Virus record (IMG/VR): IMGVR_UViG_3300043399_000561
Length of the DNA stretch: 64,000 bases
Source of the DNA: a virus
Lineage: Duplodnaviria; Heunggongvirae; Uroviricota; Caudoviricetes
Strand: one strand, 5' to 3'
Shown here: positions 3,599 to 17,803 of the stretch, piece after piece
How positions within the stretch are numbered: position 1 is the stretch's first letter
How the letters are laid out: each line of letters begins with the position of its first letter
Translations under genes and position numbers: made by a program
The notes under the pieces: model-generated
Seen by the model: the letters and a program-made list of their open reading frames with translations, nothing else
What the model was told of the DNA's origin: nothing
The model's database searches: none

Positions 3599-3674
3599 TG
3601 GTGGACCCTGTGGGGTTCGAACCCACGACCTACAGGTTAAAAGCCCGTTGCTCTACCTACTGAGCTAAAGGTCC
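3599..3674 (-). tRNA. tRNA-Lys(TTT)
   Basis: Cloverleaf with anticodon loop CTTTTAA, T-loop GGTTCGAAC, encoded CCA. Confidence 0.85.
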
Positions 3675-3680
3675 ATTATG

Positions 3681-3757
3681 TGGTGCGCCCGGGAGGATTC
3701 GAACCTCCGACCTTTCGATTATCAGTCGAATGCTCTAGCCAACTGAGCTACGAGCGC
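3681..3757 (-). tRNA. tRNA-Ile(GAT)
   Basis: Anticodon loop CTGATAA, D-arm AGCTCAGTTGGCTAGAGC, T-loop TTCGAAT, CCA encoded. Confidence 0.85.
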
Positions 3758-3763
3758 ATTAAT

Positions 3764-3841
3764 TGGAGCGACGGGTGTGATTCGAACACACGACTTTATT
3801 GCTTTGCAGGCAATTGCATTGGGCCTCTCTGCCACCGTCGC
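3764..3841 (-). tRNA. tRNA-Cys(GCA)
   Basis: Acceptor GCGACGG/CCGTCGC, anticodon loop CTGCAAA, T-loop TTCGAAT, CCA. Confidence 0.75.
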
Positions 3842-3859
3842 ATTAAACTTTATAGATTA

Positions 3860-3888
3860 GTTATATCAACATTCAGGACGAATGTCAA
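3860..3888 (-). promoter_or_regulatory. sigma70-type promoter TTGACA-N17-TATAAC driving the Cys-Ile-Lys tRNA trio
   Basis: Minus-strand TTGACA at 3888-3883, exact 17-nt spacer, TATAAC at 3865-3860, ~10 nt upstream of the tRNA-Cys 5' end. Confidence 0.6.
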
Positions 3889-3889
3889 G

Positions 3890-5419
3890 TTATTTGTTAA
3901 GATATTTCCATAAATTTATGAAATAATTGTCTGCATATTCTGCTGATCTTCTTTTGATTTCTTCGCTTTCATCAACTTTTTTCAAAGAGGTCTTCATCAT
4001 TTCGTATGAATCGTAACCCAATCTTGTTAGACCTGCTGCCTGATATGGGTCTAGCTTTCGGCGGCCCGAATTATATATCTGACTATACTGGTTGCACATA
4101 AACTCAAACGCTGCTTTCCTGTCCCAAATGTCATTTTTCCAATTGTGGTACAACCCAGATGAACCTAACAATTCATATCCGTATTTTTTTGGATTTTTTA
4201 AAATGCTACTGTCATCATATTGTCCGGGACCAATTGATAAACACGAAAGGCTTAGCGCATCCATTGGAAAATCTTCATCAGATAACAATTCTATATTCTT
4301 CTCTGCTATCTCTGGCGTTTCGCCCGGAAGTCCTATAATATATCCTGCGCTTATACCCAAAGCAGTGTCGCTTTCTTCATAGATATCTCTTAGCTTATAC
4401 AATGTTTCTATATTTTTTTCAGGGGAGCCGCCCTTGCCTATAGCCTTAGCAGCAGGAGCGTGTAATGATTCTAACCCGAAAAAATAACCGTTAAAATTTA
4501 AATCCCTCAACATATACATCTGTTCAGGTTTAGCTGCTAATAAGTCTAATCTACAGCATCCCATAAATTTCAAATCAATTTTAGACTTGTCTCTAACATA
4601 AAGCATACGCTCTATGTTATCTGTGCGGTGATTAAAAGTATCGTCAATTATGATGTAGCTAGTTGTTCCAAAATTTTCATAGTTATACAAAACTTCTTCT
4701 AGAATACAATCTTCGTGTCTCATATACGAAAGGTCGTTTTTATTTTTACCTAAGAGTGGATAGGTACAAAAAGCACATTTAAAAATACACCCTCTCGATA
4801 CTTCTATAGGCAAAGACTCATTGTTTGTTACCCCATCATAGTGTTCCCATATGTGAGTGGAGTGCCTAAAATCAAACATATCACCTTTCATATCATATGA
4901 TATGTCGTACATAAAAGTTTTAGGATCGTAATGCGGAGCTCCAACTGTCTTACTATAGATAGGATCTTTGTTTTTCTTGATGCATTCAACAATGTCTAAG
5001 ATCATTCCTTCTCCCATACCTCGAACCACGTAATCTACATTAAAATTATGGTGCCGGCCGTGATCAAGCATAACATGGGTATTACCCCCACCGTAGATTA
5101 TCTTTATCTTTGGAAATTTAGTTTTTACGTATTCGTTAATAAGAGAAAATGTATCATCACCATCTTTAAAAGTAGAGACTATGCCCGGCCTACTATCATC
5201 CATAAACAAAGTACTACTATACCCTAAAAATAAAGTATCAGTGGATATTACCCTATCTAATAAGCGCAACAATTCAGTAGTTGACAAATGGCTCATATGA
5301 TCAATGACCAAAGCCGAATATCCAGATTTGCGCAGTACGTCAGCTATTCTATAAGCACCGAAGGGTTTAAACCTTGTAGTCCAGGTCGCGTCTGATAATA
5401 TCACTGCGTTGAATGTCAT
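3890..5419 (-). CDS. B12 (cobalamin)-binding radical SAM enzyme, paralogue 1
   Basis: N-terminal B12-binding-like domain; CxxxCxxC motif RGCIFKCAFCTYP; 509 aa. Confidence 0.7.
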   Translation of the reverse strand: MTFNAVILSDATWTTRFKPFGAYRIADVLRKSGYSALVIDHMSHLSTTELLRLLDRVISTDTLFLGYSSTLFMDDSRPGIVSTFKDGDDTFSLINEYVKTKFPKIKIIYGGGNTHVMLDHGRHHNFNVDYVVRGMGEGMILDIVECIKKNKDPIYSKTVGAPHYDPKTFMYDISYDMKGDMFDFRHSTHIWEHYDGVTNNESLPIEVSRGCIFKCAFCTYPLLGKNKNDLSYMRHEDCILEEVLYNYENFGTTSYIIIDDTFNHRTDNIERMLYVRDKSKIDLKFMGCCRLDLLAAKPEQMYMLRDLNFNGYFFGLESLHAPAAKAIGKGGSPEKNIETLYKLRDIYEESDTALGISAGYIIGLPGETPEIAEKNIELLSDEDFPMDALSLSCLSIGPGQYDDSSILKNPKKYGYELLGSSGLYHNWKNDIWDRKAAFEFMCNQYSQIYNSGRRKLDPYQAAGLTRLGYDSYEMMKTSLKKVDESEEIKRRSAEYADNYFINLWKYLNK

Positions 5420-5427
5420 ATCAGTAT

Positions 5428-6909
5428 TTAACTATATAGTTTTTTGATTTTTGAAAAATATTCTTGCTCTATCTTTACTTTTAACTCAGGTATATTAGGC
5501 TTTATAGTTTCGTCAAATGTTTTGAGTGGCATATCAATCAGGTCATCAAATTTTAGACCAAATCTTAAATAGCCGGCTATCGAAAAAGACGGAATCTTCA
5601 ATTTTCCAGAATCATACAGAAACAAGTTATAATGATTGGCAATCTCTGCACATTTATGATAGTCCCAAACATCGTTTTCCCAAAAAGGATCGTTTGTTAA
5701 TCTATACCCATATTTTTCAGGATTGGCGTATAAACTACTTTTACCAAATGCACTCTCACTCATCCATAATGGAGACAGTCCCACACAATCTACCGGAGAA
5801 TCATCTTCTATTAGACGATTTATCCAGTAATCTACTGTTTCCGGCGTTTCATATGGTAGACCAACGATATACCCTAGCATTAAGTTAACTTTATTGTTGA
5901 ATGCATTTTTGAGCTTATGCATTGTTTCAAACAATTCTTCGGCCGGAGCATACTTGCCTATAGCCTTAGCAGTCTTCTCATTTAGTGTTTCAACTCCAAA
6001 ATAGTGTCCGTTGAAGTTAAGGTCCTTAAGTAAACTTATTTGCTCTGGCTTCTTTGCAAGCAAATCTAACCTGGTATATCCTACAAAATTTAAATCTAAT
6101 TTTGTTCTGTCTCTTGCTCTTAGCAACAATTCTATTTTATCATTGCGTTCATTAAAAGTGTCATCTACGATCATATATGTAGTAGTATTGAACTTTTCAT
6201 AATTATACAAAAGTTCAGAGTACAGGGAATCTTCCAAACGTATATACGAGGTGTCTTGTTTGTGCATTCCTATTAAAGGAAAAGTACAAAATGTACATCG
6301 GAAAATACAACCTCTTGCAACTTCAAGAGGTAGGCATTCACCCTCTATTATAAAATCTGAATCGTGCCAAAAATGTGTAGAATGCTTATAATCATACAGC
6401 TTGCCTCTGAGGTCATATGAAATAACATAAGCACCATTTACTTTATAATCATAGTAGGGTTCAGTATCATTTGCTAGTGAGTTTACTAAGTCCAACATCA
6501 TAGATTCTGCGTAGCCTAATACAACATAATCAGTATACGTTTCTCGTATTTTTACGAGTTGTTCAAGAATTACATTACTATTGCTACCGCCCACTATAAT
6601 TTTTATATTAGGGTATCTATTCTTAATATGTTGATTAATTGCAACGAAATCATCGTCTCCGTTATCAAAGGGAACTTTATGATTTTTTTTACTATGAAAC
6701 AGGGTGGTACTGTAACCCAAGAATAAAGTATCATCAGTAATAATGATATCTAATAAAGCAAAAAGCTGGTCTAATGGCAATCTGGATACATAGTCTAATA
6801 CTTGTATTTCATACCCTGCTTTTCGCAGTGTATCAGCAATCGTATATGCGCCTAGAGGTCTAATTCTTTCATCAAATACTGCATCAGTGAGTATAACGCC
6901 GTGGATCAT
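5428..6909 (-). CDS. B12-binding radical SAM enzyme, paralogue 2 (tandem duplicate)
   Basis: CxxxCxxC motif RGCIFRCTFCTFP; same domain order and conserved blocks as the upstream paralogue; 493 aa. Confidence 0.7.
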   Translation of the reverse strand: MIHGVILTDAVFDERIRPLGAYTIADTLRKAGYEIQVLDYVSRLPLDQLFALLDIIITDDTLFLGYSTTLFHSKKNHKVPFDNGDDDFVAINQHIKNRYPNIKIIVGGSNSNVILEQLVKIRETYTDYVVLGYAESMMLDLVNSLANDTEPYYDYKVNGAYVISYDLRGKLYDYKHSTHFWHDSDFIIEGECLPLEVARGCIFRCTFCTFPLIGMHKQDTSYIRLEDSLYSELLYNYEKFNTTTYMIVDDTFNERNDKIELLLRARDRTKLDLNFVGYTRLDLLAKKPEQISLLKDLNFNGHYFGVETLNEKTAKAIGKYAPAEELFETMHKLKNAFNNKVNLMLGYIVGLPYETPETVDYWINRLIEDDSPVDCVGLSPLWMSESAFGKSSLYANPEKYGYRLTNDPFWENDVWDYHKCAEIANHYNLFLYDSGKLKIPSFSIAGYLRFGLKFDDLIDMPLKTFDETIKPNIPELKVKIEQEYFSKIKKLYS

Positions 6910-6922: not shown

Positions 6923-7014
6923 TGGCGGAGAGTGAGGGATTCGAACCCTCGGAACCAGTTTCCCAGTTCGCCTTCTTAGCAGGAAGATGGTTTAAGCCAC
7001 TCACCCAACTCTCC
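6923..7014 (-). tRNA. tRNA-Ser(GCT), type II
   Basis: Anticodon loop CTGCTAA, long variable arm, T-loop TTCGAAT, CCA. Confidence 0.8.
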
Positions 7015-7020: not shown

Positions 7021-7440
7021 CTATATATTTAAATGCTGTTTAGCATTTTCAACATAACTTTCAATTCTTTCTTTTCCAACATTGTTCTTAGAATGCACTA
7101 TATATCTAGGAAACTTCTTTTGATTATTTACGCAATATTCAACTAACCATTTTGCGCAATCATATCCGGTTTTTTCCGGTCCATAATCAAAGGTCTTTAT
7201 TAAATCACCGTCGTTGTATGTATAAGAATCTGCCTGGGCATTCTCCTCTAACATAACTGCATAATGAAAGTCCGCTAAATCGTGGTCAAAACACACAAAC
7301 TTCGGCAAACCAAAAAACTCAACGTGTCTGACAAAACCGTCAAAGCTACGAGCTATAAAAATAGAATCATAGCGAGGAAACTCGGCCCACGTTACTTGAT
7401 CGGGCATTCTTTCGTCATCAAGAAATAAAACGTAAGACAT
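7021..7440 (-). CDS. Hypothetical protein (139 aa; start trimmed to MSYVLF to avoid overlap with tRNA-Ser)
   Basis: ORF track frame. The upstream 30 codons of the listed ORF are the tRNA-Ser(TGA) gene read in frame. Confidence 0.45.
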   Translation of the reverse strand: MSYVLFLDDERMPDQVTWAEFPRYDSIFIARSFDGFVRHVEFFGLPKFVCFDHDLADFHYAVMLEENAQADSYTYNDGDLIKTFDYGPEKTGYDCAKWLVEYCVNNQKKFPRYIVHSKNNVGKERIESYVENAKQHLNI

Positions 7441-7456: not shown

Positions 7457-7544
<88 letters not shown>

Positions 7545-7584: not shown

Positions 7585-7659
7585 TGGTGCGCCCGGCAGG
7601 ACTCGAACCCGCAACCTAGCCCTTATGAGGGGCCAGCTCCACCATTGAGCTACAGGCGC
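7585..7659 (-). tRNA. tRNA-Met(CAT)
   Basis: Anticodon loop CTCATAA with three G:C pairs closing the stem; paired 1:72 so not a classic bacterial initiator; T-loop TTCGAGT; CCA. Confidence 0.8.
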
Positions 7660-7668: not shown

Positions 7669-7755
7669 TGGTGGGAGTGGATGGATTCGAACCAACTCAG
7701 CCTTCCGACAACAGATTTACAGTCTGCCCCAGCTCTCCAACTCTGGCGCACTCCC
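7669..7755 (-). tRNA. tRNA-Tyr(GTA), type II, copy 1
   Basis: Anticodon loop CTGTAAA, long variable arm, T-loop TTCGAAT, CCA. Confidence 0.8.
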
Positions 7756-8257: not shown

Positions 8258-8334
8258 TGGTGACCCCTACGGGATTCGAACCCGTGATCTTTCCCGTGAA
8301 AGGGGAATGTCCTAAGCCGCTAGACGAAGGGGCC
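8258..8334 (-). tRNA. tRNA-Glu(TTC)
   Basis: Anticodon loop CTTTCAC, T-loop TTCGAAT, CCA. Confidence 0.85.
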
Positions 8335-8506: not shown

Positions 8507-8787
8507 TGGTATGAGCGGCGGGACTCGAACCCGCACGTCCAAAGGACACAAGATTTTCTTACCACTATAGCTTTCGCTACCCATTAGTTTGTGGTCTGGA
8601 CTATCCCTTCATCATATCATGACTGACTTAGATGCCTGCCGTCTAGTCTCTACACCTTCCCTTTCGGGCTTGGCTCGGGATCAGCATTTTACAGCCTTCC
8701 CCGAATTTGACAGGTTCTACTCTAGAGATTTCCCTCTAGGCACTCAAATTAATAAGTCTCGGGCGTCTACCATTCCGCCACGCTCAC
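8507..8787 (-). tRNA. tRNA-Leu(UAA) interrupted by a ~196-nt group I intron (exons 8754-8787 and 8507-8557)
   Basis: 5' exon is a Leu-type acceptor plus D-arm (GTGAGCG TG GCGGAATGGTAGACGCC CGAGA CTT). 3' exon is AAAA TCTTG, variable hairpin, T-arm and CGCTCAT A CCA. The intron sits between U34 and A35. Its sequence carries the conserved cores of the cyanobacterial/plastid tRNA-Leu IC3 intron (TTGAGT..CTAGAGGGAAATC, CAAATTCGGGGAA, GATCCCGAGCCAAGCCCGAAAGGGAAGGTGTAGAGACTAGACGG, AGTCCAGACC, GTAGCGAAAGCT, terminal G). Confidence 0.8.
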
Positions 8788-8939: not shown

Positions 8940-9017
<78 letters not shown>

Positions 9018-9020
9018 ATA

Positions 9021-9413
9021 TTAGAAGTGAACTACACCACTGTCAATGACAGGATGCTCATCGTCTGTGCGATCTACAATTGTGTAGGTGAATTTGGTTG
9101 TTCCAAACTCACGGAGCATATCTGAAACACTGTCTAGTGTGAAATCTTTACAAGAGTAAAGATCAAACTTGAAAAAGGATGGCTCACCAGACCAAAAATG
9201 AATGCTACTGTGACTAGTAGTAATGCCTACCATACCGGTAACACCTTCGTTACCTTCATCATCACAATATACGCAGATAGGATCAATCAATATTTTCATA
9301 TCAACTGCTTCAACCAATCGGCGGAACCAATCATTTAGTTGGGGAACATACTCTGGGCCAGGAGCCTCTGCTAGGTATCCTGTAACCAGGACGTGCTTAT
9401 TAACTTGAGCCAA
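9021..9413 (-). CDS. Pyruvoyl-type S-adenosylmethionine decarboxylase-like proenzyme (SpeD/SpeH family)
   Basis: Core motif VGITTSHSSIHFWSGE against the family consensus ESH(I/L)S(I/V)HTWPE; 130 aa, typical for the small prokaryotic class. Confidence 0.5.
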   Translation of the reverse strand: MAQVNKHVLVTGYLAEAPGPEYVPQLNDWFRRLVEAVDMKILIDPICVYCDDEGNEGVTGMVGITTSHSSIHFWSGEPSFFKFDLYSCKDFTLDSVSDMLREFGTTKFTYTIVDRTDDEHPVIDSGVVHF

Positions 9414-9491
9414 CTCATAAAACCTTTCTCATCAATTTTACTGTCAGACAGCGAATAACTATTTATCATTATGTGTGTAGTTTTTAAGAAA

Positions 9492-9566
9492 TGGTAGCGC
9501 CGAGGAATTCTGCCATCCTGACCTTTCGGGTGTAAACCGAATGCTCTACTTCTGAGCTACGGCGCC
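9492..9566 (-). tRNA. tRNA-Val(TAC) with non-canonical T-arm
   Basis: Anticodon loop TTTACAC and good acceptor, but the T-arm is a 4-bp AGGA/TCCT stem with a 9-nt loop TGGCAGAAT. Confidence 0.6.
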
Positions 9567-9578: not shown

Positions 9579-9656
9579 TGGTCGGGGTAGCAGGATTCGA
9601 ACCTGCGACCTCCTGCTCCCAAAGCAGGCCGTCTAACCAGACTGACGTACACCCCG
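9579..9656 (-). tRNA. tRNA-Pro(TGG)
   Basis: Anticodon loop TTTGGGA, T-loop TTCGAAT, CCA. Confidence 0.85.
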
Positions 9657-9663: not shown

Positions 9664-9737
9664 TGGTGGAGACGGAGGGAATCGAACCCTCAAGTGCGCC
9701 TTGCAAAGGCGCCAGTTTCCCGTTAGCTTACGTCCCC
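9664..9737 (-). tRNA. tRNA-Ala(TGC)
   Basis: Anticodon loop TTTGCAA; G3:U70 identity pair present; T-loop TTCGATT; CCA. Confidence 0.85.
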
Positions 9738-9757: not shown

Positions 9758-9786
9758 ACTATAACATAGGCAAATTCCTATGTCAA
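9758..9786 (-). promoter_or_regulatory. sigma70-type promoter TTGACA-N17-TATAGT upstream of tRNA-Ala
   Basis: Exact N17 spacing; -10 lies ~20 nt upstream of the tRNA 5' end. Confidence 0.55.
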
Positions 9787-9795: not shown

Positions 9796-9872
9796 TGGTG
9801 CGCCCGGCAGGATTCGAACCTGCAACTTGAAGCTTAGAAGGCTCCTGCTCTATCCAGTTGAACTACGAGCGC
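9796..9872 (-). tRNA. tRNA-Arg(TCT)
   Basis: Anticodon loop CTTCTAA, T-loop TTCGAAT, CCA. Confidence 0.85.
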
Positions 9873-9927: not shown

Positions 9928-10003
9928 TGGTGCTCTAGGAGAGAATCGAACTCCCTGTCTCCGGGTTACAAATCCGGCGCATCGCCAGCAATGCTTCTAG
10001 AGC
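9928..10003 (-). tRNA. tRNA-Thr(TGT)
   Basis: Anticodon loop TTTGTAA with an A:C at the stem closing pair; T-loop TTCGATT; CCA. Confidence 0.7.
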
Positions 10004-10538
10004 GTAATATTTTGTTTCTTTGCTTGTATATAGCAGCGTTAGAGACACCTAGCATATTTTCTAGTTCTCCGATTCTGTGCTTGTCAAGCAATGCAATCAA
10101 GTCAATACTATCCCAATCTACCTTTCGGCTGTTACGCTGGGCACAAGTATGACTGCAAAACTGTTGTGCAACAGGCTTTTGGGCATCGCAGATTGGACAA
10201 GCATCATACTCTGACACTTTCTTGAAGTCAGCAAATGCTTCATTAAAACCTTCATACGTTTCCGGAAGTTCTAAGGCTCCTGCGTGAATCTCACTGTGGC
10301 AGTTGTGACAAACCAAAATACACTTTCTAAGTTCAGTTACGACCTTAGACCATGATTTTGGATTCGCTCTAGTACCACCGAATCCAATGTCTTTTTGACT
10401 AGGATCAATATGATGAAATGCCAGCGCAGCAGTATGCTTATCATACCCACAGCATTGACATTTCCCGCCCATTGCTTCTACCATCTTATTTTTGGTATTT
10501 TCTCTCCAGCGTTTTACTTTTTCTGATCCATAGCTCAT
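9966..10538 (-). CDS. HNH homing-endonuclease-like protein with Cys-rich zinc-binding N-terminus
   Basis: CHNCHSEIH HNH core and several CxxC pairs. The last 12 codons are read from the 5' half of tRNA-Thr, and the stop codon is the TAA in its anticodon loop. Confidence 0.6.
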   Translation of the reverse strand: MSYGSEKVKRWRENTKNKMVEAMGGKCQCCGYDKHTAALAFHHIDPSQKDIGFGGTRANPKSWSKVVTELRKCILVCHNCHSEIHAGALELPETYEGFNEAFADFKKVSEYDACPICDAQKPVAQQFCSHTCAQRNSRKVDWDSIDLIALLDKHRIGELENMLGVSNAAIYKQRNKILRSRSIAGDAPDL

Positions 10539-10729: not shown

Positions 10730-11292
10730 GCTGCTATTTTCAAGATCCTACTGTGCTTGGGAACACCTGAAATCAAGTAATCCATCTGATCCGCAAGAAT
10801 GTTGCGGTTCTGTAGAATCAAGCTTTCATAGTGGTTCGGCTCGTAGGGAATGTAACGCAATTCCATACCACTTTGCTTTAATGTCTTGCAACCCTTCTTT
10901 TGGTTACAGTCAAAGCAAGATGTTACGACATTAGTCCATTCGTCCAAACCGCCCAAGAACCTCGGGACAATGTGGTCACGACTCAAATCATACTTACTTG
11001 CGAAATGATTTCCACAGTAAGCACAGATATGTCTGTCACGAGCAAACAATGTAGGGTTCGTAAGAACTACTTTGTTGTGCTTTTTGAAATCGAAACCGTT
11101 ACCCCTAATAGCAATAATGCTAGGAGTTTCTAGATAGCTACGAGTACCATCGTTCTTGTAACCACCGTTGTATCTAGCAATTACATCACCTAGACTCCAA
11201 GCTACCAGATTTTTTGCGTGATACGAAATTGCTTCGTCGTGGGAGACCCACGTTCTGGGGACACCCGATATGTCTAAGGCTAGAACTGCCAT
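10726..11292 (-). CDS. HNH homing endonuclease
   Basis: DHIVPRFLGGLDEWTNVVTSCFDCNQKKG, a canonical HNH motif. Confidence 0.7.
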   Translation of the reverse strand: MAVLALDISGVPRTWVSHDEAISYHAKNLVAWSLGDVIARYNGGYKNDGTRSYLETPSIIAIRGNGFDFKKHNKVVLTNPTLFARDRHICAYCGNHFASKYDLSRDHIVPRFLGGLDEWTNVVTSCFDCNQKKGCKTLKQSGMELRYIPYEPNHYESLILQNRNILADQMDYLISGVPKHSRILKIAA

Positions 11293-11396: not shown

Positions 11397-11482
11397 TGGT
11401 GCACGGAAGAGGATTCGAACCTCTACACCATTTCTGATAGTACCCCCTCAAGATACCGCGTCTGCCGTTTCGCCACCCGTGC
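11397..11482 (-). tRNA. tRNA-Leu(GAG), type II
   Basis: Leu-type 3-bp D-stem, anticodon loop TTGAGGG, variable arm, T-loop TTCGAAT, CCA. Confidence 0.75.
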
Positions 11483-12128
11483 GTGAATCCCACTCTTGTA
11501 TGTCTTTCATAAGCTCATCAATAGTACAGCTATTTTTCCAAGTCTTTTTGGCGTTAGCTGAATGTAAGACGAACTCGCAATTAGCAGGATGTGATATAAT
11601 CTTAGGATCAATATTGTTAGTAAATCCGTAATGCACTGATATACGATGATCACGGACTACCCCAGTAGGATTAATCTTTTTATGATACATACCGTGTTCT
11701 TGTAGAAGACAGTACCCTTTAACTTTTTCTATACAGGATGATAAGTGGAATGAGCAATCTTCCTTATACATCACCTTGCAAAGTGCTTGCTCATCAGTTA
11801 TCTTTCTTTTACCTGTCATGTTCGTGGCCCAAGAACGGATGCTTTCATGAGTATCTTTAGTGAGACCTTTTGCCCAAGCCATCCTCTGTTTAGAATCTTC
11901 GGACAATGTTGCATAGCGTTCCTTAGCACTTACTCGTTTACCGCTCTCATAAGCGTTCTTTGTGTTAGCACTATTTCTTGCTCTAACAGCAGGGCATTTG
12001 TTAGGAACAATCTCGCACGAAAGTTTGCCACTTGAGGTAGAGTAGTGTGCAATATTGCCACACCCATAACTACATAACTCATCAGTGGTGATCTTTATTC
12101 CTGATTTAATAGGCATTTGTTTCTCCAT
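11448..12128 (-). CDS. HNH-family homing endonuclease
   Basis: DHRISVHYGFTNNIDPKIISHPANCEFVLHSANAKK. The C-terminal ~12 codons and the TGA stop lie inside tRNA-Leu(GAG). Confidence 0.6.
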   Translation of the reverse strand: MEKQMPIKSGIKITTDELCSYGCGNIAHYSTSSGKLSCEIVPNKCPAVRARNSANTKNAYESGKRVSAKERYATLSEDSKQRMAWAKGLTKDTHESIRSWATNMTGKRKITDEQALCKVMYKEDCSFHLSSCIEKVKGYCLLQEHGMYHKKINPTGVVRDHRISVHYGFTNNIDPKIISHPANCEFVLHSANAKKTWKNSCTIDELMKDIQEWDSRTGGETADAVS

Positions 12129-12176: not shown

Positions 12177-12267
12177 TGGTACTCCTGCTCGGATTCGAAC
12201 CGAGACCGACCCCTAATCTGGGCTCCGGGATATAAATCCGGCCACTCTACCATTAAGCTACAGGAGT
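12177..12267 (-). tRNA. Unusual 91-nt type II tRNA, anticodon apparently TAT
   Basis: Perfect 7-bp acceptor, T-arm CTCGG TTCGAAT CCGAG, CCA and a long variable arm. The anticodon arm is CCGGA TTTATAT CCCGG, which is either a 4-bp stem with a 9-nt loop or a stem with an A:C closing pair. Confidence 0.5.
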
Positions 12268-12279: not shown

Positions 12280-12352
12280 TGGTGCCTCGTGAGGGATTTG
12301 AACCCCCGGCCTTTGCTTTACGAAAGCACTGCACTACCACTGTGCTAACGAG
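12280..12352 (-). tRNA. tRNA-Thr(CGT)
   Basis: Anticodon loop TTCGTAA on a 4-bp stem, T-loop TTCAAAT, CCA. Confidence 0.65.
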
Positions 12353-12354
12353 GC

Positions 12355-12901: not shown

Positions 12902-12985
12902 TGGTGCCCCGAGAGGGACTTGAACCCCCACGCCTTTCAGCAAAAGATTTTGAGTCTTCCGTGGCTACCATTACACCATCGGGGC
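12902..12985 (-). tRNA. tRNA-Leu(CAA), type II
   Basis: Anticodon loop CTCAAAA, variable arm, T-loop TTCAAGT, CCA. Confidence 0.8.
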
Positions 12986-13104: not shown

Positions 13105-13188
13105 TGGTGCGGGTAGAGGGACTTGAACCCCCACGCGATTAAGCAACAGATTCTAAGTCTGCCGTGGCTACCATTACACCATACCCGC
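13105..13188 (-). tRNA. tRNA-Leu(TAG), type II
   Basis: Anticodon loop CTTAGAA; close paralogue of the Leu(CAA) gene; CCA. Confidence 0.8.
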
Positions 13189-13339
13189 ATTTAAAATTAT
13201 TTACTCGCCGTGACTCGTATCTCAAATAAAGTCACCGATAGTTCTTTCAACTACTGCTACGGCCTTCGGGTACACTCTCGCTCGGATTGAGCATAGAGCA
13301 AGGTCACATACGGCATACCGTACACACACGAGTAAAATT

Positions 13340-13415
13340 TGGTGCCGCCTCGAGGTTTCGATCCCCGTTCTTCGGTGCTTCAAACCGACGCTATCACCAG
13401 ATCAGCTAAAGCGGC
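13340..13415 (-). tRNA. tRNA-Phe(GAA)
   Basis: Anticodon loop TTGAAGC, T-loop ATCGAAA (unusual), CCA. Confidence 0.7.
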
Positions 13416-13967
13416 ATTTAAGTCATTATATTGTTCTTTCTCTATAATGAGAATCTTCTTGTCAGGATGCTGTTCTATTACTGCATCCATCTTAGCTCTA
13501 TCATTGCCCCACCATCTGCCCTTTATCTCAACATAAAGATCAAAAGCAGGAAGATAGAAATCAGGAGTGTAGTTCTTTGTTATTCCATCTAGAACATACT
13601 TCCAAGACTTGCATCTTTCCCAAGCAATGTTATTATCGTTACAGTATAAAGCAAAAGTCCTTTCCCAGGTACCTTGCACTTTCTTACCGCTCACTTCAAA
13701 CCATTTACTCTTGCCACCTGGATTATGCTGTGACATTCGTTCGGACAATCGTTTACGAGCATCCTCGCCCATTACAGTAGGACCGTATTCAGCAATGCGA
13801 AGTTTTGTAGCTTCAGATTTAGTCCTAGTAATTAGGTCGCCGCGATTTTTGGCATTGACCAATGAGTTAAAAGCGAGTCCGTGCTTCTGTTGCAGGCCTC
13901 TAAAGCTCAACCCAGCGTCATAATCTTTCTGTATTTCAGCCCAATCGTAATGTTTCTTGTGTGGCAT
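13380..13967 (-). CDS. PD-(D/E)xK-type homing endonuclease with N-terminal HTH-like region
   Basis: DFYLPAFDLYVEIKG gives D...E-x-K. The last 11 codons (AALADLVIASV) are the 5' 33 nt of tRNA-Phe read in frame, and the TGA stop sits in its anticodon loop. Confidence 0.55.
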   Translation of the reverse strand: MPHKKHYDWAEIQKDYDAGLSFRGLQQKHGLAFNSLVNAKNRGDLITRTKSEATKLRIAEYGPTVMGEDARKRLSERMSQHNPGGKSKWFEVSGKKVQGTWERTFALYCNDNNIAWERCKSWKYVLDGITKNYTPDFYLPAFDLYVEIKGRWWGNDRAKMDAVIEQHPDKKILIIEKEQYNDLNAALADLVIASV

Positions 13968-14195: not shown

Positions 14196-14273
14196 TGGTC
14201 ACGCCGACGAGATTCGAACTCGCATTCTCCGACTTGAAAGGACGAACTCTTATGCCAATTAGAGGACGGCGTG
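14196..14273 (-). tRNA. tRNA with anticodon TTC (Glu-like), imperfect anticodon stem
   Basis: Good acceptor, D-arm and T-arm (TTCGAAT) with CCA; anticodon stem TCGTC/GTCGG has a T:T mismatch; loop CTTTCAA. Confidence 0.5.
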
Positions 14274-14279: not shown

Positions 14280-14363
14280 TGGTGGGCCGGTGTGGACTTG
14301 AACCACGCCCCGAAGGATGAGTTTTACAGACTCACTGCTAAATCCAATTAGCTTTACCGTCCC
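14280..14363 (-). tRNA. tRNA-Tyr(GTA), type II, copy 2
   Basis: Anticodon loop CTGTAAA, variable arm, T-loop TTCAAGT, CCA; one A:G mismatch in the acceptor stem. Confidence 0.7.
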
Positions 14364-14370: not shown

Positions 14371-14555
14371 TGGTGAGGGCGACCAGATTCGAACTGGCAG
14401 AAGTCGTTACCAAAGCATTACCAGTGGCTGCCATCAGGTTCAAAGACTGCCGCGAGTCTACAAAAAATACCCCTAGGCACTTGCGAACAAACTCGGGTGT
14501 TACCCCAATCGTTCCTTACTTTAACGATGCGTATACCTATTTCCGCTACGCCCTC
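14371..14555 (-). ncRNA. 185-nt tRNA-like gene: Leu-type tRNA with ~100-nt insertion in the anticodon loop (small intron or disrupted tRNA)
   Basis: Perfect acceptor GAGGGCG/CGCCCTC with A and CCA, T-arm GCCAG TTCGAAT CTGGT, Leu-like D-arm GCGGAAATAGGTATACGC. The anticodon-stem 5' strand TCGTT pairs with AACGA about 100 nt downstream; the 3' exon loop then reads CTTTGGT, a possible TTG anticodon. Confidence 0.45.
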
Positions 14556-14565
14556 ATATAATCTT

Positions 14566-14641
14566 GGTGGAGCCTACGGGGATCAAACCCGTGACCTTTT
14601 GTCTGCCAGACAAATGCTCTCTCATCTGAGCTAAAGCCCCA
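14566..14641 (-). tRNA. tRNA-Ala(GGC)
   Basis: Anticodon loop CTGGCAG; G3:U70 present; T-loop TTTGATC; CCA. Confidence 0.75.
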
Positions 14642-14648
14642 ATATCGG

Positions 14649-14731
14649 AGGAGTGTGATGGCATCGAACCATGTACCTTTCGGTACCTACTGATTTCGAA
14701 TCAGTGCGGGGAGCCAACCCCAGCACACTCC
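14649..14731 (-). tRNA. tRNA-Ser(CGA), type II, no encoded CCA
   Basis: Anticodon loop TTCGAAA; variable hairpin GGTACCGAAAGGTAC; T-arm ATGG TTCGATG CCAT. Confidence 0.65.
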
Positions 14732-14805
14732 AATCTCGCGGGGGAGTTGCACTGTCCCCCTTCCCTCAATCTGCTATTGTGCAACGCAGTAATGAGGAGT
14801 ATTTC

Positions 14806-14881
14806 TGGTCGGGAAGACAGGGATCGAACCTGCGACCTCGGCGTCCCGAACGCCGCGCTCTACCACCTGAGCTACTTCCCG
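14806..14881 (-). tRNA. tRNA-Pro(CGG)
   Basis: Anticodon loop TTCGGGA, T-loop TTCGATC, CCA. Confidence 0.8.
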
Positions 14882-15018
14882 TTGTTATTCTTTAATCTAT
14901 CAAAAGCACGTTTCATCCGCGCTCTTGCTTCTTCTGCTTCTTTTCCTTTGAGGACTCTTACGCCCTCAAAAACACGGTTGCTCGTGTAGTTGCTAAAGTC
15001 AGGTAAATCAGACTTCAT
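14872..15018 (-). CDS. Possible small basic protein (48 aa)
   Basis: MKSDLPDFSNYTSNRVFEGVRVLKGKEAEEARARMKRAFDRLKNNNGK, taken from the internal ATG of the listed ORF. The upstream part of that ORF is tRNA sequence, and the stop overlaps tRNA-Pro by 10 nt. Confidence 0.2.
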   Translation of the reverse strand: MKSDLPDFSNYTSNRVFEGVRVLKGKEAEEARARMKRAFDRLKNNNGK

Positions 15019-15034: not shown

Positions 15035-15113
15035 TGGTCGGGATAGCAGGACTCGAACCTGCGACCTCTTGTCCCCCAGACAAGCGCGCTAAACCAGGCT
15101 GCGCCATACCCCG
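15035..15113 (-). tRNA. tRNA-Pro(GGG)
   Basis: Anticodon loop CTGGGGG, T-loop TTCGAGT, CCA. Confidence 0.75.
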
Positions 15114-15192: not shown

Positions 15193-15288
15193 TGGTGGAC
15201 TGTGAAGGATTCGAACCTTCGAGTGGCCGTCGCCAATGAGTACCATACTTAATGGGAATCGAACCCAATCCTCTTCCAGGAACAGTCC
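15193..15288 (-). pseudogene. Chimeric or pseudo tRNA (96 nt): intact acceptor, T-arm and CCA, but a non-foldable core containing a second internal T-arm-like segment
   Basis: GGACTGT...ACAGTCC A CCA with T-arm GAAGG TTCGAAT CCTTC. Interior holds TGGG TTCGATT CCCA and a hairpin TGGC GACG GCCA. No D-arm or anticodon arm can be drawn. Confidence 0.4.
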
Positions 15289-15294: not shown

Positions 15295-15384
15295 TGGCGG
15301 AGTCGGTGAGATTCGAACTCACGGTACCCTTACGAGTACAACACCTTTCCAGGGTGTCACAATCGGCCACTCTGTCACGACTCC
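15295..15384 (-). tRNA. tRNA-Ser(GGA), type II
   Basis: Anticodon loop CTGGAAA; near-identical D-arm and variable arm to tRNA-Ser(TGA); CCA. Confidence 0.85.
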
Positions 15385-15522: not shown

Positions 15523-15597
15523 TGGTGCGCGATGCAGGAGTTGAACCTGCCGCCTCTTCCATGTCAAGGAAGCGTTCTACCGATGAACTAATCGCGC
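15523..15597 (-). tRNA. tRNA-Val(GAC)
   Basis: Anticodon loop TTGACAT, T-loop TTCAACT, CCA. Confidence 0.8.
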
Positions 15598-15604: not shown

Positions 15605-15679
15605 TGGCTGACTAAGTAGGACTCGAACCTACATATCCTTCATTAACAGTGAAGTTCATTACCATTATGATATTAGCCA
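15605..15679 (-). tRNA. tRNA-Asn(GTT), copy 2
   Basis: Anticodon loop CTGTTAA, T-loop TTCGAGT, CCA. Confidence 0.8.
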
Positions 15680-15737: not shown

Positions 15738-15815
15738 TGGGGTGGGTGAAGGGATTCGAACCCTCGACATTCGGCACCACAAGCCGACGCTCTAACCAAC
15801 TGAGCTACACTCACC
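15738..15815 (-). tRNA. tRNA-His(GTG) with encoded G-1
   Basis: Anticodon loop TTGTGGT; extra 5' G pairs with discriminator C73; CCA. Confidence 0.8.
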
Positions 15816-15821
15816 ATGAAT

Positions 15822-15897
15822 TGGAGGACCCGCCCGGGCTCGAACCGGGGACCTAGAGATTAAAAGTCTCCCACTCTACCTACTGAGTTACGGGTCC
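15822..15897 (-). tRNA. tRNA-Lys(TTT), copy 2
   Basis: Anticodon loop CTTTTAA, T-loop TTCGAGC, CCA. Confidence 0.85.
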
Positions 15898-15947: not shown

Positions 15948-16024
15948 TGGTGCAACCAGAAGGATTCGAACCTTCAACCTTCGGTTTCGTAGACCGATGC
16001 TCTATCCAGTTGAGCCATGGCTGC
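15948..16024 (-). tRNA. tRNA-Arg(ACG)
   Basis: Anticodon loop CTACGAA, T-loop TTCGAAT, CCA. Confidence 0.85.
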
Positions 16025-16035: not shown

Positions 16036-16692
16036 TTATAATGATTGTAGTCTATCTATAATAGAATTACGTTCTTCAATTGTGTTTTCTTTTAGGTCTA
16101 GAGGATAGAAAAACGCCATCGGAAGTTCAAATGCCGGCACTGACTCTAGTCCACCCTTAATTGTTTGGTTGTGATAAGTTTTAGCATTTAAACTAAAAAC
16201 ACTCTTGTTTTCAGCTTCATATTGCTCTATCAAGACAGGTGTACTTGAAGGGAAACTTTCATTGGGATCAGATACCTCACCCGGAACTTCATAAAAATTA
16301 ATTAAACTGTTGTTTGCGCCATCAAGCAAAAAAGTTAATGTGTAGTCAGAAGTGGTTGGGTGCAGATGTTTGTGTATATTTAAAGTAACGTTATTCAACC
16401 CAAATAACATAGGCAAAAAGTTATATTTCTTACATAATTCAGAAATATTGGTCCTGTTAATTACTTCACTATAAAGTAATTGATCTATATCTCTCACTTC
16501 ATCCGCAAGAGCATTGAAACTCATATAAGTTTGTGTACCAGTAACCGTCTGATATAATCCAGATGCCCAGCAATACGAATTCTGTACTGAAGGATCTAAC
16601 TCATAGACCAGAGAGAAGGCTTCTAGAGTGGAAGTGACAATTTCATTGTACACTGAATCTGACAGAATTACGGGAACATAATTTTTTGACAC
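16036..16692 (-). CDS. Hypothetical protein (218 aa)
   Basis: ORF track; no motif I can assign confidently. Confidence 0.45.
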   Translation of the reverse strand: MSKNYVPVILSDSVYNEIVTSTLEAFSLVYELDPSVQNSYCWASGLYQTVTGTQTYMSFNALADEVRDIDQLLYSEVINRTNISELCKKYNFLPMLFGLNNVTLNIHKHLHPTTSDYTLTFLLDGANNSLINFYEVPGEVSDPNESFPSSTPVLIEQYEAENKSVFSLNAKTYHNQTIKGGLESVPAFELPMAFFYPLDLKENTIEERNSIIDRLQSL

Positions 16693-16745: not shown

Positions 16746-16822
16746 TGGTAGACCCTGAGAGATTCGAACTCCCGACCTTCTGTTTCGAAGACAGACATTC
16801 TATCCAGCTGAACTAAGGGTCC
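16746..16822 (-). tRNA. tRNA-Arg(TCG)
   Basis: Anticodon loop CTTCGAA, T-loop TTCGAAT, CCA. Confidence 0.8.
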
Positions 16823-16833
16823 AAAATATTATA

Positions 16834-16907
16834 TGGTGCTCCCAGGAGGTACCGCCCCTCCGGCTCATCATTACCAATGATGTGTATTGCTTTTATACTA
16901 TGGGAGC
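16834..16907 (-). tRNA. tRNA-Thr(GGT) with non-canonical T-loop
   Basis: Anticodon loop TTGGTAA; T-arm GGAGG GGCGGTA CCTCC lacks the TTC; CCA. Confidence 0.6.
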
Positions 16908-16938
16908 CGACATCATATTTAGTATGCTAATTCCGGTG

Positions 16939-17535
16939 TTAATTTAAAGGAAGTCCTCTTGATGCTCTGCCATTGCCCTTATTACGACCTTTCCAAGTCG
17001 GCGTAATACTATGACAATTAGGACAAACTAATCTAAGGTTGGCGAATTCGTTATTTCCCGCGTTGCCGTCAATATGATCTAATTCCAACGACAATTTTGC
17101 GCCGCGCCATTCCGATATGCCACATTCAAAGCAGTTGCTTCCGTACTCACGAATCAACGCAGTTTTGATAGTCGTTCGTTCGGTTAGGTTTCCTTCATAT
17201 AATCGTTTTTTAGTGTCCTCTCTAGTAGGAATATGCTGGCAATCTGCACTACAATATTTTTTTACTAGGTGCTTAGAAGAGGTGTGTTTTTTTCCGCAGC
17301 CTGCACATTCCCATTCTACTTTGGTAGCTCTATTTTTATTAGAATGGGTAGCGGCGCAAGTGTGGTTACAGAATTTTTTGTGCCTATCAACATATGATAG
17401 TGTTTTGTTGCATTCCGCACAAGAACTAGGAGAACTGTCATAAAGTTCTACTCGTTGCAGTTTTTTCTTTTCTAAGGTAGCTCTGGCTTTTTTCATACCA
17501 AGCGCGCCTGCTTCTGCTTTTGTTAGTTTTCGCAT
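16939..17535 (-). CDS. HNH endonuclease with multiple CxxC zinc knuckles
   Basis: ELDHIDGNAGNNEFANLRLVCPNCHSITP. Confidence 0.65.
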   Translation of the reverse strand: MRKLTKAEAGALGMKKARATLEKKKLQRVELYDSSPSSCAECNKTLSYVDRHKKFCNHTCAATHSNKNRATKVEWECAGCGKKHTSSKHLVKKYCSADCQHIPTREDTKKRLYEGNLTERTTIKTALIREYGSNCFECGISEWRGAKLSLELDHIDGNAGNNEFANLRLVCPNCHSITPTWKGRNKGNGRASRGLPLN

Positions 17536-17600
17536 ATAATACTCTCCACAATGTATTTATGCTCTAGGTTCAAAACCAGCTAAAAGCAGCATTATAAAGT

Positions 17601-17674
17601 TGGATGCCCCTCTAGGACTCGAACCTAGGTTGACGGATTCAAAGTCCGCTCTCTTACCACTAGAGGAAGGGGCA
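17601..17674 (-). tRNA. tRNA-Gln(TTG)
   Basis: Anticodon loop CTTTGAA, T-loop TTCGAGT, CCA. Confidence 0.8.
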
Positions 17675-17692
17675 ATGTCAACTTGTAGACAC

Positions 17693-17721
17693 ATTATATA
17701 TGCGATTGCATAAAATGTCAA
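17693..17721 (-). promoter_or_regulatory. sigma70 consensus promoter TTGACA-N17-TATAAT upstream of tRNA-Gln(TTG)
   Basis: Perfect -35 and -10 hexamers with 17-nt spacer; -10 lies ~20 nt from the tRNA 5' end. Confidence 0.6.
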
Positions 17722-17727
17722 ATAAAA

Positions 17728-17803
17728 TGGATGCCCGAGATGGGGTCGAACCACCAACCTCCTGGTTCAGAGCCAGGCGATCTGCCAATTGATCTATCGG
17801 GCA
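17728..17803 (-). tRNA. tRNA-Gln(CTG)
   Basis: Anticodon loop CTCTGAA, T-loop TTCGACC, CCA. Confidence 0.8.

Follow-up and report, generated by a model that had tools for sequence, protein, structure and literature searches.

A 40-gene tRNA island in an uncultivated jumbo-phage lineage: gene content, conservation and possible reasons for its existence

Why a phage should encode transfer RNAs (tRNAs) for whole codon boxes, rather than for a few rare codons, is the question raised by IMG/VR virus record IMGVR_UViG_3300043399_000561 (Duplodnaviria; Heunggongvirae; Uroviricota; Caudoviricetes), of which a stretch of 64,000 nucleotides (nt), referred to here as the window, was analysed. Positions 3599-17803 of the window, on the minus strand, hold a tRNA island of 14.2 kb. 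We consider it probable, with odds of about three in four, that these 40 genes form the greater share of the tRNA island of a jumbo phage of about 325-360 kb, that the island encodes functional tRNAs, and that two selective pressures, codon matching and replacement of lost host tRNAs, both fit its existence.

A minus-strand island of 40 tRNA and tRNA-like genes

The window was searched with ARAGORN by default, with introns allowed and at a lowered threshold, and with the Rfam tRNA model (gathering score 29 bits). By default, ARAGORN detected 35 tRNA genes, 34 of them in the island, all on the minus strand, and one with anticodon CUA at 27883-27957. The Rfam gathering score was passed directly by 34 island genes, with 40-76 bits, including two that default ARAGORN did not call, Val(UAC) at 9495-9566 and Thr(GGU) at 16837-16907; both have non-canonical T loops and were assigned by folding and relaxed ARAGORN. 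Leu(UAA) (8507-8787) was added by ARAGORN once introns were allowed, with the support of the intron model, Leu(GAG) was detected by Rfam in a permissive search only (41.7 bits), and Ser(CGA) had ARAGORN as its sole caller. In total, 37 tRNA genes were called by ARAGORN and/or Rfam, and a scan of the gaps for T-arm motifs revealed three further tRNA-like genes (14280-14363, 14371-14555 and 15193-15288), giving 40. As the E-values range from 1e-5 to 1e-15 per gene, chance hits are not a concern. The initial annotation, made from the sequence alone, had proposed about 40 genes in one minus-strand island, and both this count and the acceptance of the genes by automated finders were confirmed. With 40 tRNA or tRNA-like genes in tandem on one strand, the island has the organization of phage tRNA clusters.

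The 37 called genes span 18 amino acids, and in the case of Ser, Leu, Pro, Thr, Arg, Ala, Val and Gln the codon boxes are covered in full. The claim that the set goes beyond rare codons also held, as there are cognates both for the commonest codons (AAA/AAG, GAA, ACA and UUA) and for the rarest (CUC, UCC, UCG and CCC, with shares of 6%, 5%, 7% and 12%, respectively, in the window genes). The first list of anticodons was right overall, except that Glu(UUC) occurs twice, that the second Tyr gene is an aberrant copy and that Ile(UAU) (12177-12267) had been omitted. Two of its details were verified: tRNA-His has an encoded G-1 (G at 15815, opposite C73), and Leu(UAA) contains an intron, as seen from the split gene called by ARAGORN and an Rfam RF00028 match. 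No Gly, Asp or initiator tRNA was found within the window, in the genes of which Gly and Asp represent 8.6% and 5.3% of the codons. The sole CAU tRNA of the island is elongator-like; its position 1:72 is paired (G1-C72), and hence it is not an initiator. The genes and elements of the island are, in order:

3599-3674, minus, tRNA-Lys(UUU) copy 1, CCA encoded (ARAGORN; Rfam 72.8 bits)
3681-3757, minus, tRNA-Ile(GAU) (ARAGORN; Rfam 76.1 bits)
3764-3841, minus, tRNA-Cys(GCA) (ARAGORN; Rfam 59.5 bits)
3890-5419, minus, B12-binding radical SAM protein 1, cargo (Pfam Radical_SAM 1.7e-13)
5428-6909, minus, B12-binding radical SAM protein 2 (Pfam Radical_SAM 2.7e-17, B12-binding 2e-07)
6923-7014, minus, tRNA-Ser(GCU) (ARAGORN; Rfam 52.5 bits)
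7021-7440, minus, cREC_REC (cyclic-phosphate-processing receiver) domain protein (Pfam PF20274 1.3e-17)
7457-7544, minus, tRNA-Ser(UGA) (ARAGORN; Rfam 51.7 bits)
7585-7659, minus, tRNA-Met(CAU), elongator-like (ARAGORN; Rfam 63.5 bits)
7669-7755, minus, tRNA-Tyr(GUA) copy 1 (ARAGORN; Rfam 40.3 bits)
8258-8334, minus, tRNA-Glu(UUC) copy 1 (ARAGORN; Rfam 61.7 bits)
8507-8787, minus, tRNA-Leu(UAA), split by a group I intron (ARAGORN with introns allowed)
8558-8753, minus, group I intron of 196 nt between U34 and A35 (Rfam RF00028 65.7 bits)
8940-9017, minus, tRNA-Trp(CCA) (ARAGORN; Rfam 58.2 bits)
9021-9413, minus, S-adenosylmethionine decarboxylase-like protein (Pfam AdoMet_dc 7.2e-11)
9492-9566, minus, tRNA-Val(UAC), aberrant T loop (Rfam 48.9 bits and fold; no ARAGORN call)
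9579-9656, minus, tRNA-Pro(UGG) (ARAGORN; Rfam 64.8 bits)
9664-9737, minus, tRNA-Ala(UGC), G3:U70 (ARAGORN; Rfam 55.4 bits)
9796-9872, minus, tRNA-Arg(UCU) (ARAGORN; Rfam 64.1 bits)
9928-10003, minus, tRNA-Thr(UGU) (ARAGORN; Rfam 51.5 bits)
9966-10538, minus, free-standing HNH endonuclease (PHROG 35854, 9.4e-39)
10598-10674, minus, tRNA-Asn(GUU) copy 1 (ARAGORN; Rfam 55.4 bits)
10726-11292, minus, HNH endonuclease (Pfam HNH_5 5.3e-14, HNH 2.1e-12)
11397-11482, minus, tRNA-Leu(GAG) (ARAGORN; Rfam 41.7 bits, permissive)
11448-12128, minus, open reading frame (ORF) of phage family phrog_23051, without assigned function (1.3e-24)
12177-12267, minus, tRNA-Ile(UAU), 91 nt, extra variable arm with 7-nt loop CAGAUUA (ARAGORN; Rfam 52.6 bits)
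12280-12354, minus, tRNA-Thr(CGU) (ARAGORN; Rfam 68 bits)
12902-12985, minus, tRNA-Leu(CAA) (ARAGORN; Rfam 53.7 bits)
13105-13188, minus, tRNA-Leu(UAG) (ARAGORN; Rfam 57.3 bits)
13340-13415, minus, tRNA-Phe(GAA) (ARAGORN; Rfam 53.6 bits)
13380-13967, minus, endonuclease I-like protein, probable homing or junction endonuclease (Pfam Phage_endo_I 4.9e-08)
14196-14273, minus, tRNA-Glu(UUC) copy 2 (ARAGORN; Rfam 50.9 bits)
14280-14363, minus, tRNA-Tyr(GUA) copy 2, aberrant (motif scan and minimum-free-energy cloverleaf)
14371-14555, minus, 185-nt tRNA-like RNA gene (T-arm motif scan, folding, alignment with relatives)
14565-14640, minus, tRNA-Ala(GGC), G3:U70 (ARAGORN; Rfam 59.8 bits)
14647-14731, minus, tRNA-Ser(CGA), CCA not encoded, U73 (ARAGORN only; 3' end read from the sequence)
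14806-14881, minus, tRNA-Pro(CGG) (ARAGORN; Rfam 64.3 bits)
15035-15113, minus, tRNA-Pro(GGG) (ARAGORN; Rfam 60.7 bits)
15193-15288, minus, 96-nt tRNA-like element (ARAGORN at lowered threshold and minimum-free-energy fold)
15295-15384, minus, tRNA-Ser(GGA) (ARAGORN; Rfam 53 bits)
15523-15597, minus, tRNA-Val(GAC) (ARAGORN; Rfam 66.3 bits)
15605-15679, minus, tRNA-Asn(GUU) copy 2 (ARAGORN; Rfam 63.7 bits)
15738-15815, minus, tRNA-His(GUG), encoded G-1, C73 (ARAGORN; Rfam 65 bits)
15822-15897, minus, tRNA-Lys(UUU) copy 2 (ARAGORN; Rfam 68.1 bits)
15948-16024, minus, tRNA-Arg(ACG) (ARAGORN; Rfam 70.1 bits)
16036-16692, minus, ORF inside the island (no match in Pfam, PHROGs or NCBIfam)
16746-16822, minus, tRNA-Arg(UCG) (ARAGORN; Rfam 65.7 bits)
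16834-16907, minus, tRNA-Thr(GGU), aberrant T loop (Rfam 48.5 bits; ARAGORN at lowered threshold)
16939-17535, minus, HNH endonuclease (Pfam HNH 4.5e-05)
17601-17674, minus, tRNA-Gln(UUG) (ARAGORN; Rfam 61.5 bits)
17693-17721, minus, sigma-70-like promoter with 12/12 consensus matches upstream of Gln(UUG) (promoter scan)
17728-17803, minus, tRNA-Gln(CUG) (ARAGORN; Rfam 62.1 bits)

Identity elements and conservation of the tRNA stems

The CCA end is encoded by every called tRNA gene except Ser(CGA), and bacterial identity rules are obeyed: tRNA-His carries G-1 and C73, G3:U70 is present in the two Ala tRNAs, the Pro tRNAs have C1-G72 and A73, and three of the four Ser tRNAs have G73. For a comparison of stems, same-anticodon tRNAs of the window and of two related contigs, L011 and L013, were paired by gene order, and 17 pairs of the acceptor, T and anticodon stems were scored in each. 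Among the 850 stem pairs, 554 were identical, 49 had changed on one side, 230 had changed on both and still pair, and just 17 were broken, a pattern which, read from these alignments, is one of strong structural selection. Gene identity and stem conservation, like the synteny and neighbours described below, are seen directly; the island genes would be working tRNAs, presumably expressed, processed and charged, for which promoters, encoded CCA ends and the compensatory changes in the stems speak indirectly.

The divergence of the stems was bimodal. Pro(CGG), Leu(CAA) and Ile(UAU) match L011 throughout the scored pairs; for Met, Ala(UGC), Phe and Thr, 8-10 of the 17 are different. As the proteins of these phages are about 88-92% identical, this bimodality speaks for the replacement or recombination of individual genes and not for steady drift. 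Within the window, high identity was found between isoacceptors, namely Pro UGG/GGG (84%), Leu CAA/UAG (82%) and Ser UGA/GGA (81%), and the duplicate copies of Lys(UUU) and Asn(GUU) are divergent (74% and 65% identity, respectively). Thr(UGU) of the window is closest to Thr(CGU) of L011 (86%), and its Thr(CGU) is 80% identical to Thr(UGU) of L011, yet has its best match in Thr(CGU) of L013 (89%). Such paralogy within isoacceptor sets indicates that the full families arose at least partly from duplication inside the island followed by anticodon change.

The decoding set of the lineage

The proteins of the window provide a phage context, with a ribonucleotide reductase, a peroxiredoxin, a TonB-dependent receptor, tail-fibre-like proteins, very large proteins that match no family, and, in addition, matches to PHROGs. 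Its PTH2-like protein and its reductase have hundreds of environmental homologues of 72-93% identity on contigs of up to 325-360 kb, which places the window in an abundant, uncultivated jumbo-phage lineage. An origin from a bacterial tRNA operon or from a cyanophage was considered and rejected: the island has no near DNA match in any phage record, the tail-fibre matches to cyanomyoviruses reach only 42-45%, and the best matches of the reductase are in Xanthomonas, Ralstonia and Stenotrophomonas phages (53-59%). No cultured or named member of this lineage was found in the phage collection searched.

Related IMG/VR contigs (L009-L014), in which the kinase that flanks the island is 83-88% identical, carry the same tRNAs in the same order, and the order is also kept in relatives from ENA. 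In the window, the sequence begins inside a gene for a KOW/SH3-like repeat protein (1-2901, minus strand, more than 967 residues, cut by the window start; 989 amino acids in L011), which is kept in relatives and divides the tRNA island into two halves. Beyond it, the relatives encode an ADP-ribosylglycohydrolase, HAD_SAK_2 (a 'Swiss-army-knife' HAD domain of RNA repair), an RNase T-like exonuclease, Lys(CUU) and RtcB (E = 1e-132), and, further on, Glu(CUC), a Pfam-positive PTH2, a 190-residue fragment resembling histidyl-tRNA synthetase (HisRS), Met, Asp(GUC), Ile(GAU), a CAU tRNA, Gly(UCC) and Gly(GCC). The additional CAU tRNA has the C1xA72 mismatch that is typical of bacterial initiators.

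Together with this extension, the island tRNAs let the lineage decode all 20 amino acids, an initiator-like tRNA included, so that a true absence of Gly and Asp tRNAs was rejected for the lineage, the relatives of which carry them past the window edge. The repertoire was therefore rightly called near-complete as far as the lineage is concerned (relatives are complete for the 20 amino acids), although not for the window itself, which is without Gly and Asp. The anticodons absent from the lineage are C34 forms only (Gly CCC, Leu CAG, Arg CCG and CCU, Ala CGC and Val CAC), and their codons can be read under the usual wobble rules by U34 tRNAs that are present or, in the case of CGG, by the A34 tRNA-Arg. 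As for synthetases, no complete aminoacyl-tRNA synthetase was seen, only the HisRS-like fragment of the relatives. In L011, this fragment (1222-1794) corresponds to a catalytic core and lies amid tRNAs, RtcB and PTH2.

Promoters, endonucleases and cargo

A perfect sigma-70-like promoter (TTGACA-17-TATAAT, 12/12) precedes Gln(UUG) at 17693-17721, and sites with 10-11 of 12 matches were detected ahead of Asn (10701-10729), Ala(UGC) (9758-9786), Trp (9018-9046), Phe (13425-13453) and Leu(UAG) (13196-13225). Genes for HNH endonucleases (9966-10538, 10726-11292 and 16939-17535) and for an endonuclease I-like protein (13380-13967) lie between the tRNA genes, as do the homing endonucleases of clusters of the T5/T4 type. 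Their slots vary: that between Thr(UGU) and Asn has an HNH gene here and is empty (6 nt) in L011.

The slot between Cys and Ser(GCU) contains a 3-kb pair of radical SAM genes (3890-6909), in place of 67 nt in L011; the pair is lacking in L011 and L013. The two proteins (509 and 493 amino acids) have no homologue by tblastn in 50,697 phage records, and their class-B radical SAM matches in NCBIfam were generic and all below the cut-offs. Their genes contain 19 and 18 AUA codons, a richness that suggests recent acquisition from an AT-rich source. A role of the pair as island-linked tRNA-modifying enzymes was considered and found no support, given its lack in close relatives, the absence of phage homologues and the sub-cut-off, generic family matches.

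Selective pressures on the island

The following sequence of events would explain the island. Several sigma-70-like promoters would give rise to short multi-tRNA precursors, to be trimmed by host RNase P and 3' processing enzymes, and most of the products would need no CCA addition, as this end is encoded. With the flank known from relatives, the set would read every sense codon, so that translation of the AT-rich genome could do without the host tRNA pool. One pressure would be a tRNA supply fitted to the codon and amino-acid usage of the phage, and the other the replacement of host tRNAs cleaved or degraded in infection, to which the surrounding genes for RNA repair and NAD salvage point; both are regarded as contributing. 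Finally, the free-standing HNH and endonuclease genes would make the island a recombination hot-spot, which would explain why relatives exchange single tRNA genes and cargo genes but keep one order of anticodons.

Several observations weigh against this explanation. The T loops or ends of Val(UAC), Thr(GGU), Tyr copy 2 and Ser(CGA) are non-canonical, and these tRNAs might function weakly or not at all. Both Lys anticodon loops (CUUUUAA) are canonical, with no sequence sign of nuclease resistance. Overall, the promoter scan was only a little above that of shuffled sequence, with 48 sites found and 38.4 ± 5.7 expected. The Gly, Asp and initiator tRNAs are deduced from relatives and were not seen in this genome, and the TonB-dependent receptor gives no host, its nearest bacterial homologues being 41-47% identical.

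The replacement of host tRNAs is not a new idea. Phage arrays that replace nuclease-destroyed host tRNAs have been proposed (van den Berg et al. 2023, PMC10264068; Iyer et al. 2021, PMC7824862), and there is experimental evidence for T5 tRNA-Tyr against retron-Eco7 and for T5 tRNA-Lys, Thr and Asn against PARIS (PMC11555353, PMC12409363), as well as for T6 tRNA-Tyr against Septu, where the SegB homing endonuclease amplifies the tRNA segment (PMC13096335). The initial annotation had this function as its explanation, and gene context and the non-rare anticodons speak for it, but codon matching fits as well. That counter-defence alone accounts for the island, its tRNAs being insensitive to nucleases and taking the place of host tRNAs that anticodon nucleases or other tRNA-targeting immune effectors have cut, is a serious possibility which in our view falls somewhat short of even chances. 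It would account for the repair toolkit, made up of cREC, the P-loop kinase and the PTH2-fold protein in the window and of RtcB, PTH2, HAD_SAK_2 and the exonuclease in relatives, for the NAD+ salvage and Macro genes close by and the ADP-ribosylglycohydrolase of relatives, and for tRNA bodies that change fast between relatives while anticodons are fixed. Moreover, three of the four duplicated tRNAs (Lys-UUU, Asn-GUU and Tyr-GUA) are known targets of PARIS, PrrC, retron-Eco7 and Septu (PMC12409363, PMC11555353, PMC13096335). In contrast, the anticodon loops look canonical, coverage of all 61 codons exceeds the need created by any known set of nucleases, and Ser UGA, CGA and GGA are all kept, although mycobacteriophages avoid Ser tRNAs of the UCN box, an avoidance that is host-specific.

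Supply and demand alone, in which an AT-rich phage (about 40% GC) would meet a host tRNA pool tuned to other codons, seems to us possible but doubtful as the full explanation. The genes of the window favour A/U-ending codons, AUA makes up 24% of the Ile codons and Asn 7.8% of all codons, the duplicated tRNAs serve A/U-rich families (Lys AAR, Asn AAY, Tyr UAY and Glu GAR), and Ile(UAU), the reader of AUA, is conserved. Also counted in its favour was that the nearest homologues of the TonB receptor come from what we take to be high-GC groups. However, dedicated C34 or G34 tRNAs are present for the rarest G/C-ending codons (CCG, CCC, UCG, UCC, CUC, ACG and CAG), which a GC-rich host would supply, the duplicates are only 65-74% identical and thus not simple dosage repeats, and the island is embedded among RNA-repair genes. 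In cluster C1 mycobacteriophages, host codon usage and the host tRNA gene set already match the phage (PMC10264068).

Selfish accretion, by which homing endonucleases would copy island segments between co-infecting relatives to scant phage benefit, is very improbable: the tRNAs do have among them at least three HNH genes and a gene for an endonuclease I-like protein, in slots that are empty in relatives, same-slot divergence is bimodal (some tRNAs identical, others different at 9-10 of 17 stem pairs) and the intron and the radical SAM cargo come and go, but the near-perfect cloverleaf pairing (17 of 850 pairs broken), an anticodon order kept where the kinase is only 83-88% identical, and a non-redundant set complete for decoding argue for selection on function.

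The island represents a further large example, from an abundant environmental jumbo-phage lineage, of a well-described phenomenon. Its value lies in the comparative data set, where a fixed order of anticodons is combined with swapped tRNA bodies, intron, endonucleases and cargo, a pattern with which an arms race could be separated from codon matching.

An extra-arm tRNA-Ile(UAU)

The 91-nt Ile(UAU) has a 7-bp acceptor stem, a 5-bp T stem, A73, C4-G69, U12-A23, the anticodon loop UUUAUAU and a long variable arm. The 7-nt loop of this arm, CAGAUUA, is as large as an anticodon loop; its central triplet, GAU, is the major Ile anticodon, and the loop resembles the anticodon loop of Ile-GAU. Orthologues were found in L011 (15620-15710), L013 (16143-16233), L005 (5140-5230) and L017 (8837-8930), the last of which is a relative with a kinase only 55% identical. 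When IMG/VR was searched with a pattern consisting of the arm loop and T arm, at least 120 stretches matched, and among the matches listed (120), 103 were Ile(UAU) tRNAs of 85-96 nt as called by ARAGORN. There are at least 89 distinct phage Ile(UAU) sequences with a 4-bp arm stem capped by CAGAUUA; the invariance of this loop is partly by construction, since it was in the search pattern, but the covariation of the stem is not, and across the 89 sequences pair 2 shows five pair types (99% paired) and pair 4 five pair types (90% paired). Among cultured phages, Lactobacillus phage LpeD (L167, 1499-1590) carries such a gene, unannotated in its RefSeq record, and none was found in the T5 record.

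Reassignment of AUA to Leu or Ser by this tRNA is unlikely, because AUA falls at invariant Ile positions (NLCxEI and GIG) of the ribonucleotide reductase of the window; thus Ile(UAU) most likely inserts Ile. A long variable arm on a UAU-anticodon tRNA is likewise found in bacterial allo-tRNAs (PMC5389517) and in the nematode nev-tRNA-Ile(UAU) (PMC3333845). In contrast to these, the phage tRNA has 7/5 acceptor/T geometry instead of 8/4 or 9/3, A73 instead of G73, an Ile-like body (C4-G69, U12-A23), the conserved loop CAGAUUA and no sign of recoding, so that their combination of 8/4 or 9/3 geometry with G73 does not describe it and Leu charging is unlikely. No published description of the class was found in the literature searched, outside which most subscription journals lie.

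We put forward, as a tentative and rather unlikely joint proposal, that Ile(UAU) represents an undescribed, widespread, phage-specific tRNA class, with a loop that perhaps is a handle for isoleucyl-tRNA synthetase (IleRS) or a modification enzyme, and that the 185-nt and 96-nt genes of the island encode functional non-decoding RNAs. By conjecture, CAGAUUA could be a second identity element or such a handle. If so, the phage could decode AUA independently of the lysidine pathway, whatever the host, and the tRNA would be a new natural answer to a long-studied problem, how AUA is read without misreading AUG, as well as a natural case in which an added tRNA arm acts in a sequence-specific way.

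The group I intron of tRNA-Leu(UAA)

The RF00028 match of the intron (8577-8764) scored 65.7 bits against a gathering score of 50. Joining of the exons gives an 85-nt tRNA-Leu(UAA) with anticodon loop CUUAAAA and the junction U34|A35, which we take to be the classical insertion point of the cyanobacterial and plastid tRNA-Leu(UAA) intron. The intron has a group I core inserted between positions 34 and 35, and both the host gene and an above-threshold RF00028 core are shared with the bacterial and plastid form; the present one differs in its location in a phage, its small size (196 nt) and its variable presence in close relatives, as it was found in L005 and is lacking in L011 and L013. The nearest copies in large phages are those of the 735-kb LR756501 (77% identical) and of Agrobacterium phage Atu_ph07. 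In the latter, neither the tRNA nor its intron is annotated, and a 'hypothetical protein' overlaps them.

Comparison with known tRNA clusters

Phage T5 (NC_005859, tRNA region at about 28-41 kb) similarly has same-strand tRNA groups behind their own promoters, HNH endonucleases, small ORFs and tRNA-like stable RNAs; its record lists 25 tRNAs, the HNH endonucleases hegA and hegC-F, many promoters and 'tRNA-like stable RNAs with unknown functions'. At the DNA level the two show no detectable similarity, and the window has 40 genes (more in the lineage) compared to the 25 of T5, with full C34/G34/U34 sets for several boxes, an intron-split Leu(UAA) and RNA-repair and NAD-salvage surroundings. Also, AUA is read in T5 by Ile2(CAU), whereas here an extra-arm UAU tRNA would do so.

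T-even phages have about eight tRNAs, and their SegB is a GIY-YIG enzyme. As in the T4/T6 cluster with SegB (T6: PMC13096335), an endonuclease gene lies inside the tRNA cluster, but the enzymes here are HNH and endonuclease I-like, and no tRNA amplification is seen in the window. Arrays of cluster C1 mycobacteriophages (33-36 tRNAs) are similarly near-complete, and nuclease replacement was proposed for them (PMC10264068); unlike the island, which has all three, they avoid Ser tRNAs of the UCN box (GGA, UGA and CGA), their host and nucleases are known, and the window has no initiator. The closest likeness in size class and in tens of tRNAs (up to 67 reported) is to huge and jumbo phages (Al-Shayeb 2020, PMC7162821; Iyer 2021, PMC7824862), with which the toolkits of RtcB, PTH2, cREC, NAMPT/NMNAT-Nudix and Macro are shared, and, like these, relatives of the present phage carry transfer-messenger RNA (tmRNA), ribosomal protein S21 and suppressor tRNAs. 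L174, a more distant clade member, has a permuted tmRNA (9046-9497, tag VAANDNMDIALAA) and ribosomal protein S21 (14685-14927).

Neighbouring genes

Two genes outside the island had been described as its neighbours:

2926-3597, plus, P-loop kinase flanking the island (Pfam Zeta_toxin 4.6e-13, AAA_33 8.7e-12)
22121-22444, minus, PTH2-fold protein, outside the island (AlphaFold pLDDT 87.5 and Foldseek)

The first, presented earlier as Pnk-like, is indeed an adjoining P-loop kinase, but its matches are generic (Zeta_toxin/AAA_33) and those to NCBIfam kinases weak, so that its identity as a polynucleotide 5'-kinase is not specifically indicated. Its homologues of at least 50% identity adjoin tRNA arrays; those of about 40% do not. 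No RNA ligase was detected among the window ORFs scanned, and RtcB, HAD_SAK_2 and PTH2 lie just past the left edge in relatives. Homologues of the cREC protein of the island occur in jumbo and T4-like phages.

The second, announced as a neighbouring peptidyl-tRNA hydrolase, lies 4.3 kb from the island and holds at the level of fold, with no Pfam or PDB sequence match. Its BLASTP E-value against the Pfam-positive PTH2 of relatives (PF01981 family) was 0.16. For the AlphaFold model, the top 14 Foldseek matches in PDB were PTH2-family or same-fold structural-genomics proteins (TM mostly 0.6-0.7; at the head of the list TM 0.61-0.70, E of about 1e-4 to 3e-5, probability 1.00), and the protein is a candidate divergent peptidyl-tRNA hydrolase by its predicted structure. 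Beside it, a minus-strand module (22492-25787) encodes NAMPT (22492-23865), a Macro/DarG-like protein (23945-24541) and an NMNAT-Nudix fusion (24738-25787), a combination that is a known jumbo-phage counter to NAD+-depleting defences.

The TonB-dependent receptor (Plug and beta-barrel; 29571-31904, minus strand) is followed by an SPFH/Band-7 protein (31914-33293). Inference of a host from it led to distant homologues only, the best bacterial ones (Steroidobacteraceae and Novosphingobium) being 41-47% identical. Further on, an ORF of 2321 residues (44097-51062, minus strand) has no Pfam match, and neighbours of 922 to 1176 residues are likewise without assignment; these large proteins are probably virion or tail-fibre components.

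Aberrant tRNA-like genes and the CUA tRNA

The second Tyr(GUA) copy (84 nt) has one acceptor mismatch and a 4-bp T stem; in the orthologous slot of a 344-kb relative (L173, 16276-16359), ARAGORN calls a tRNA-Tyr outright. In the 185-nt element, a perfect acceptor stem is accompanied by D and T arms and A73-CCA; its 'anticodon' loop is 9 nt long, and it contains an insert of about 105 nt. Only four sequence variants in two haplotypes were found, none in L011 or L013, and two mutually exclusive helices each show compensatory changes. Its interpretation by ARAGORN as a tRNA-Gln(UUG) with a 107-nt intron found no support, as the distal strand changes from AACGA to AACAG in relatives and the proposed partner is unchanged. 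The 96-nt element, detected by ARAGORN only at the lowered threshold, has an acceptor stem of 7 bp, a T arm and CCA, and another hairpin inside it is similar to a T arm. By analogy with the tRNA-like stable RNAs of T5, both RNAs could have a non-decoding function, for instance as decoys for tRNA-targeting enzymes.

Outside the island, one further tRNA gene was called:

27883-27957, minus, solitary CUA-anticodon tRNA of the amber-suppressor type, with G73 (ARAGORN; Rfam 50 bits)

Genome-wide recoding of TAG through this tRNA was rejected for the window, which has no TAG-interrupted genes: no in-frame TAG or TGA read-through joining pairs of coding-strand ORFs was found in it, and TAG is the stop codon of 4 of its 42 genes. 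Among relatives, L174 has two CUA tRNAs, and L016 and L036 have UCA tRNAs.

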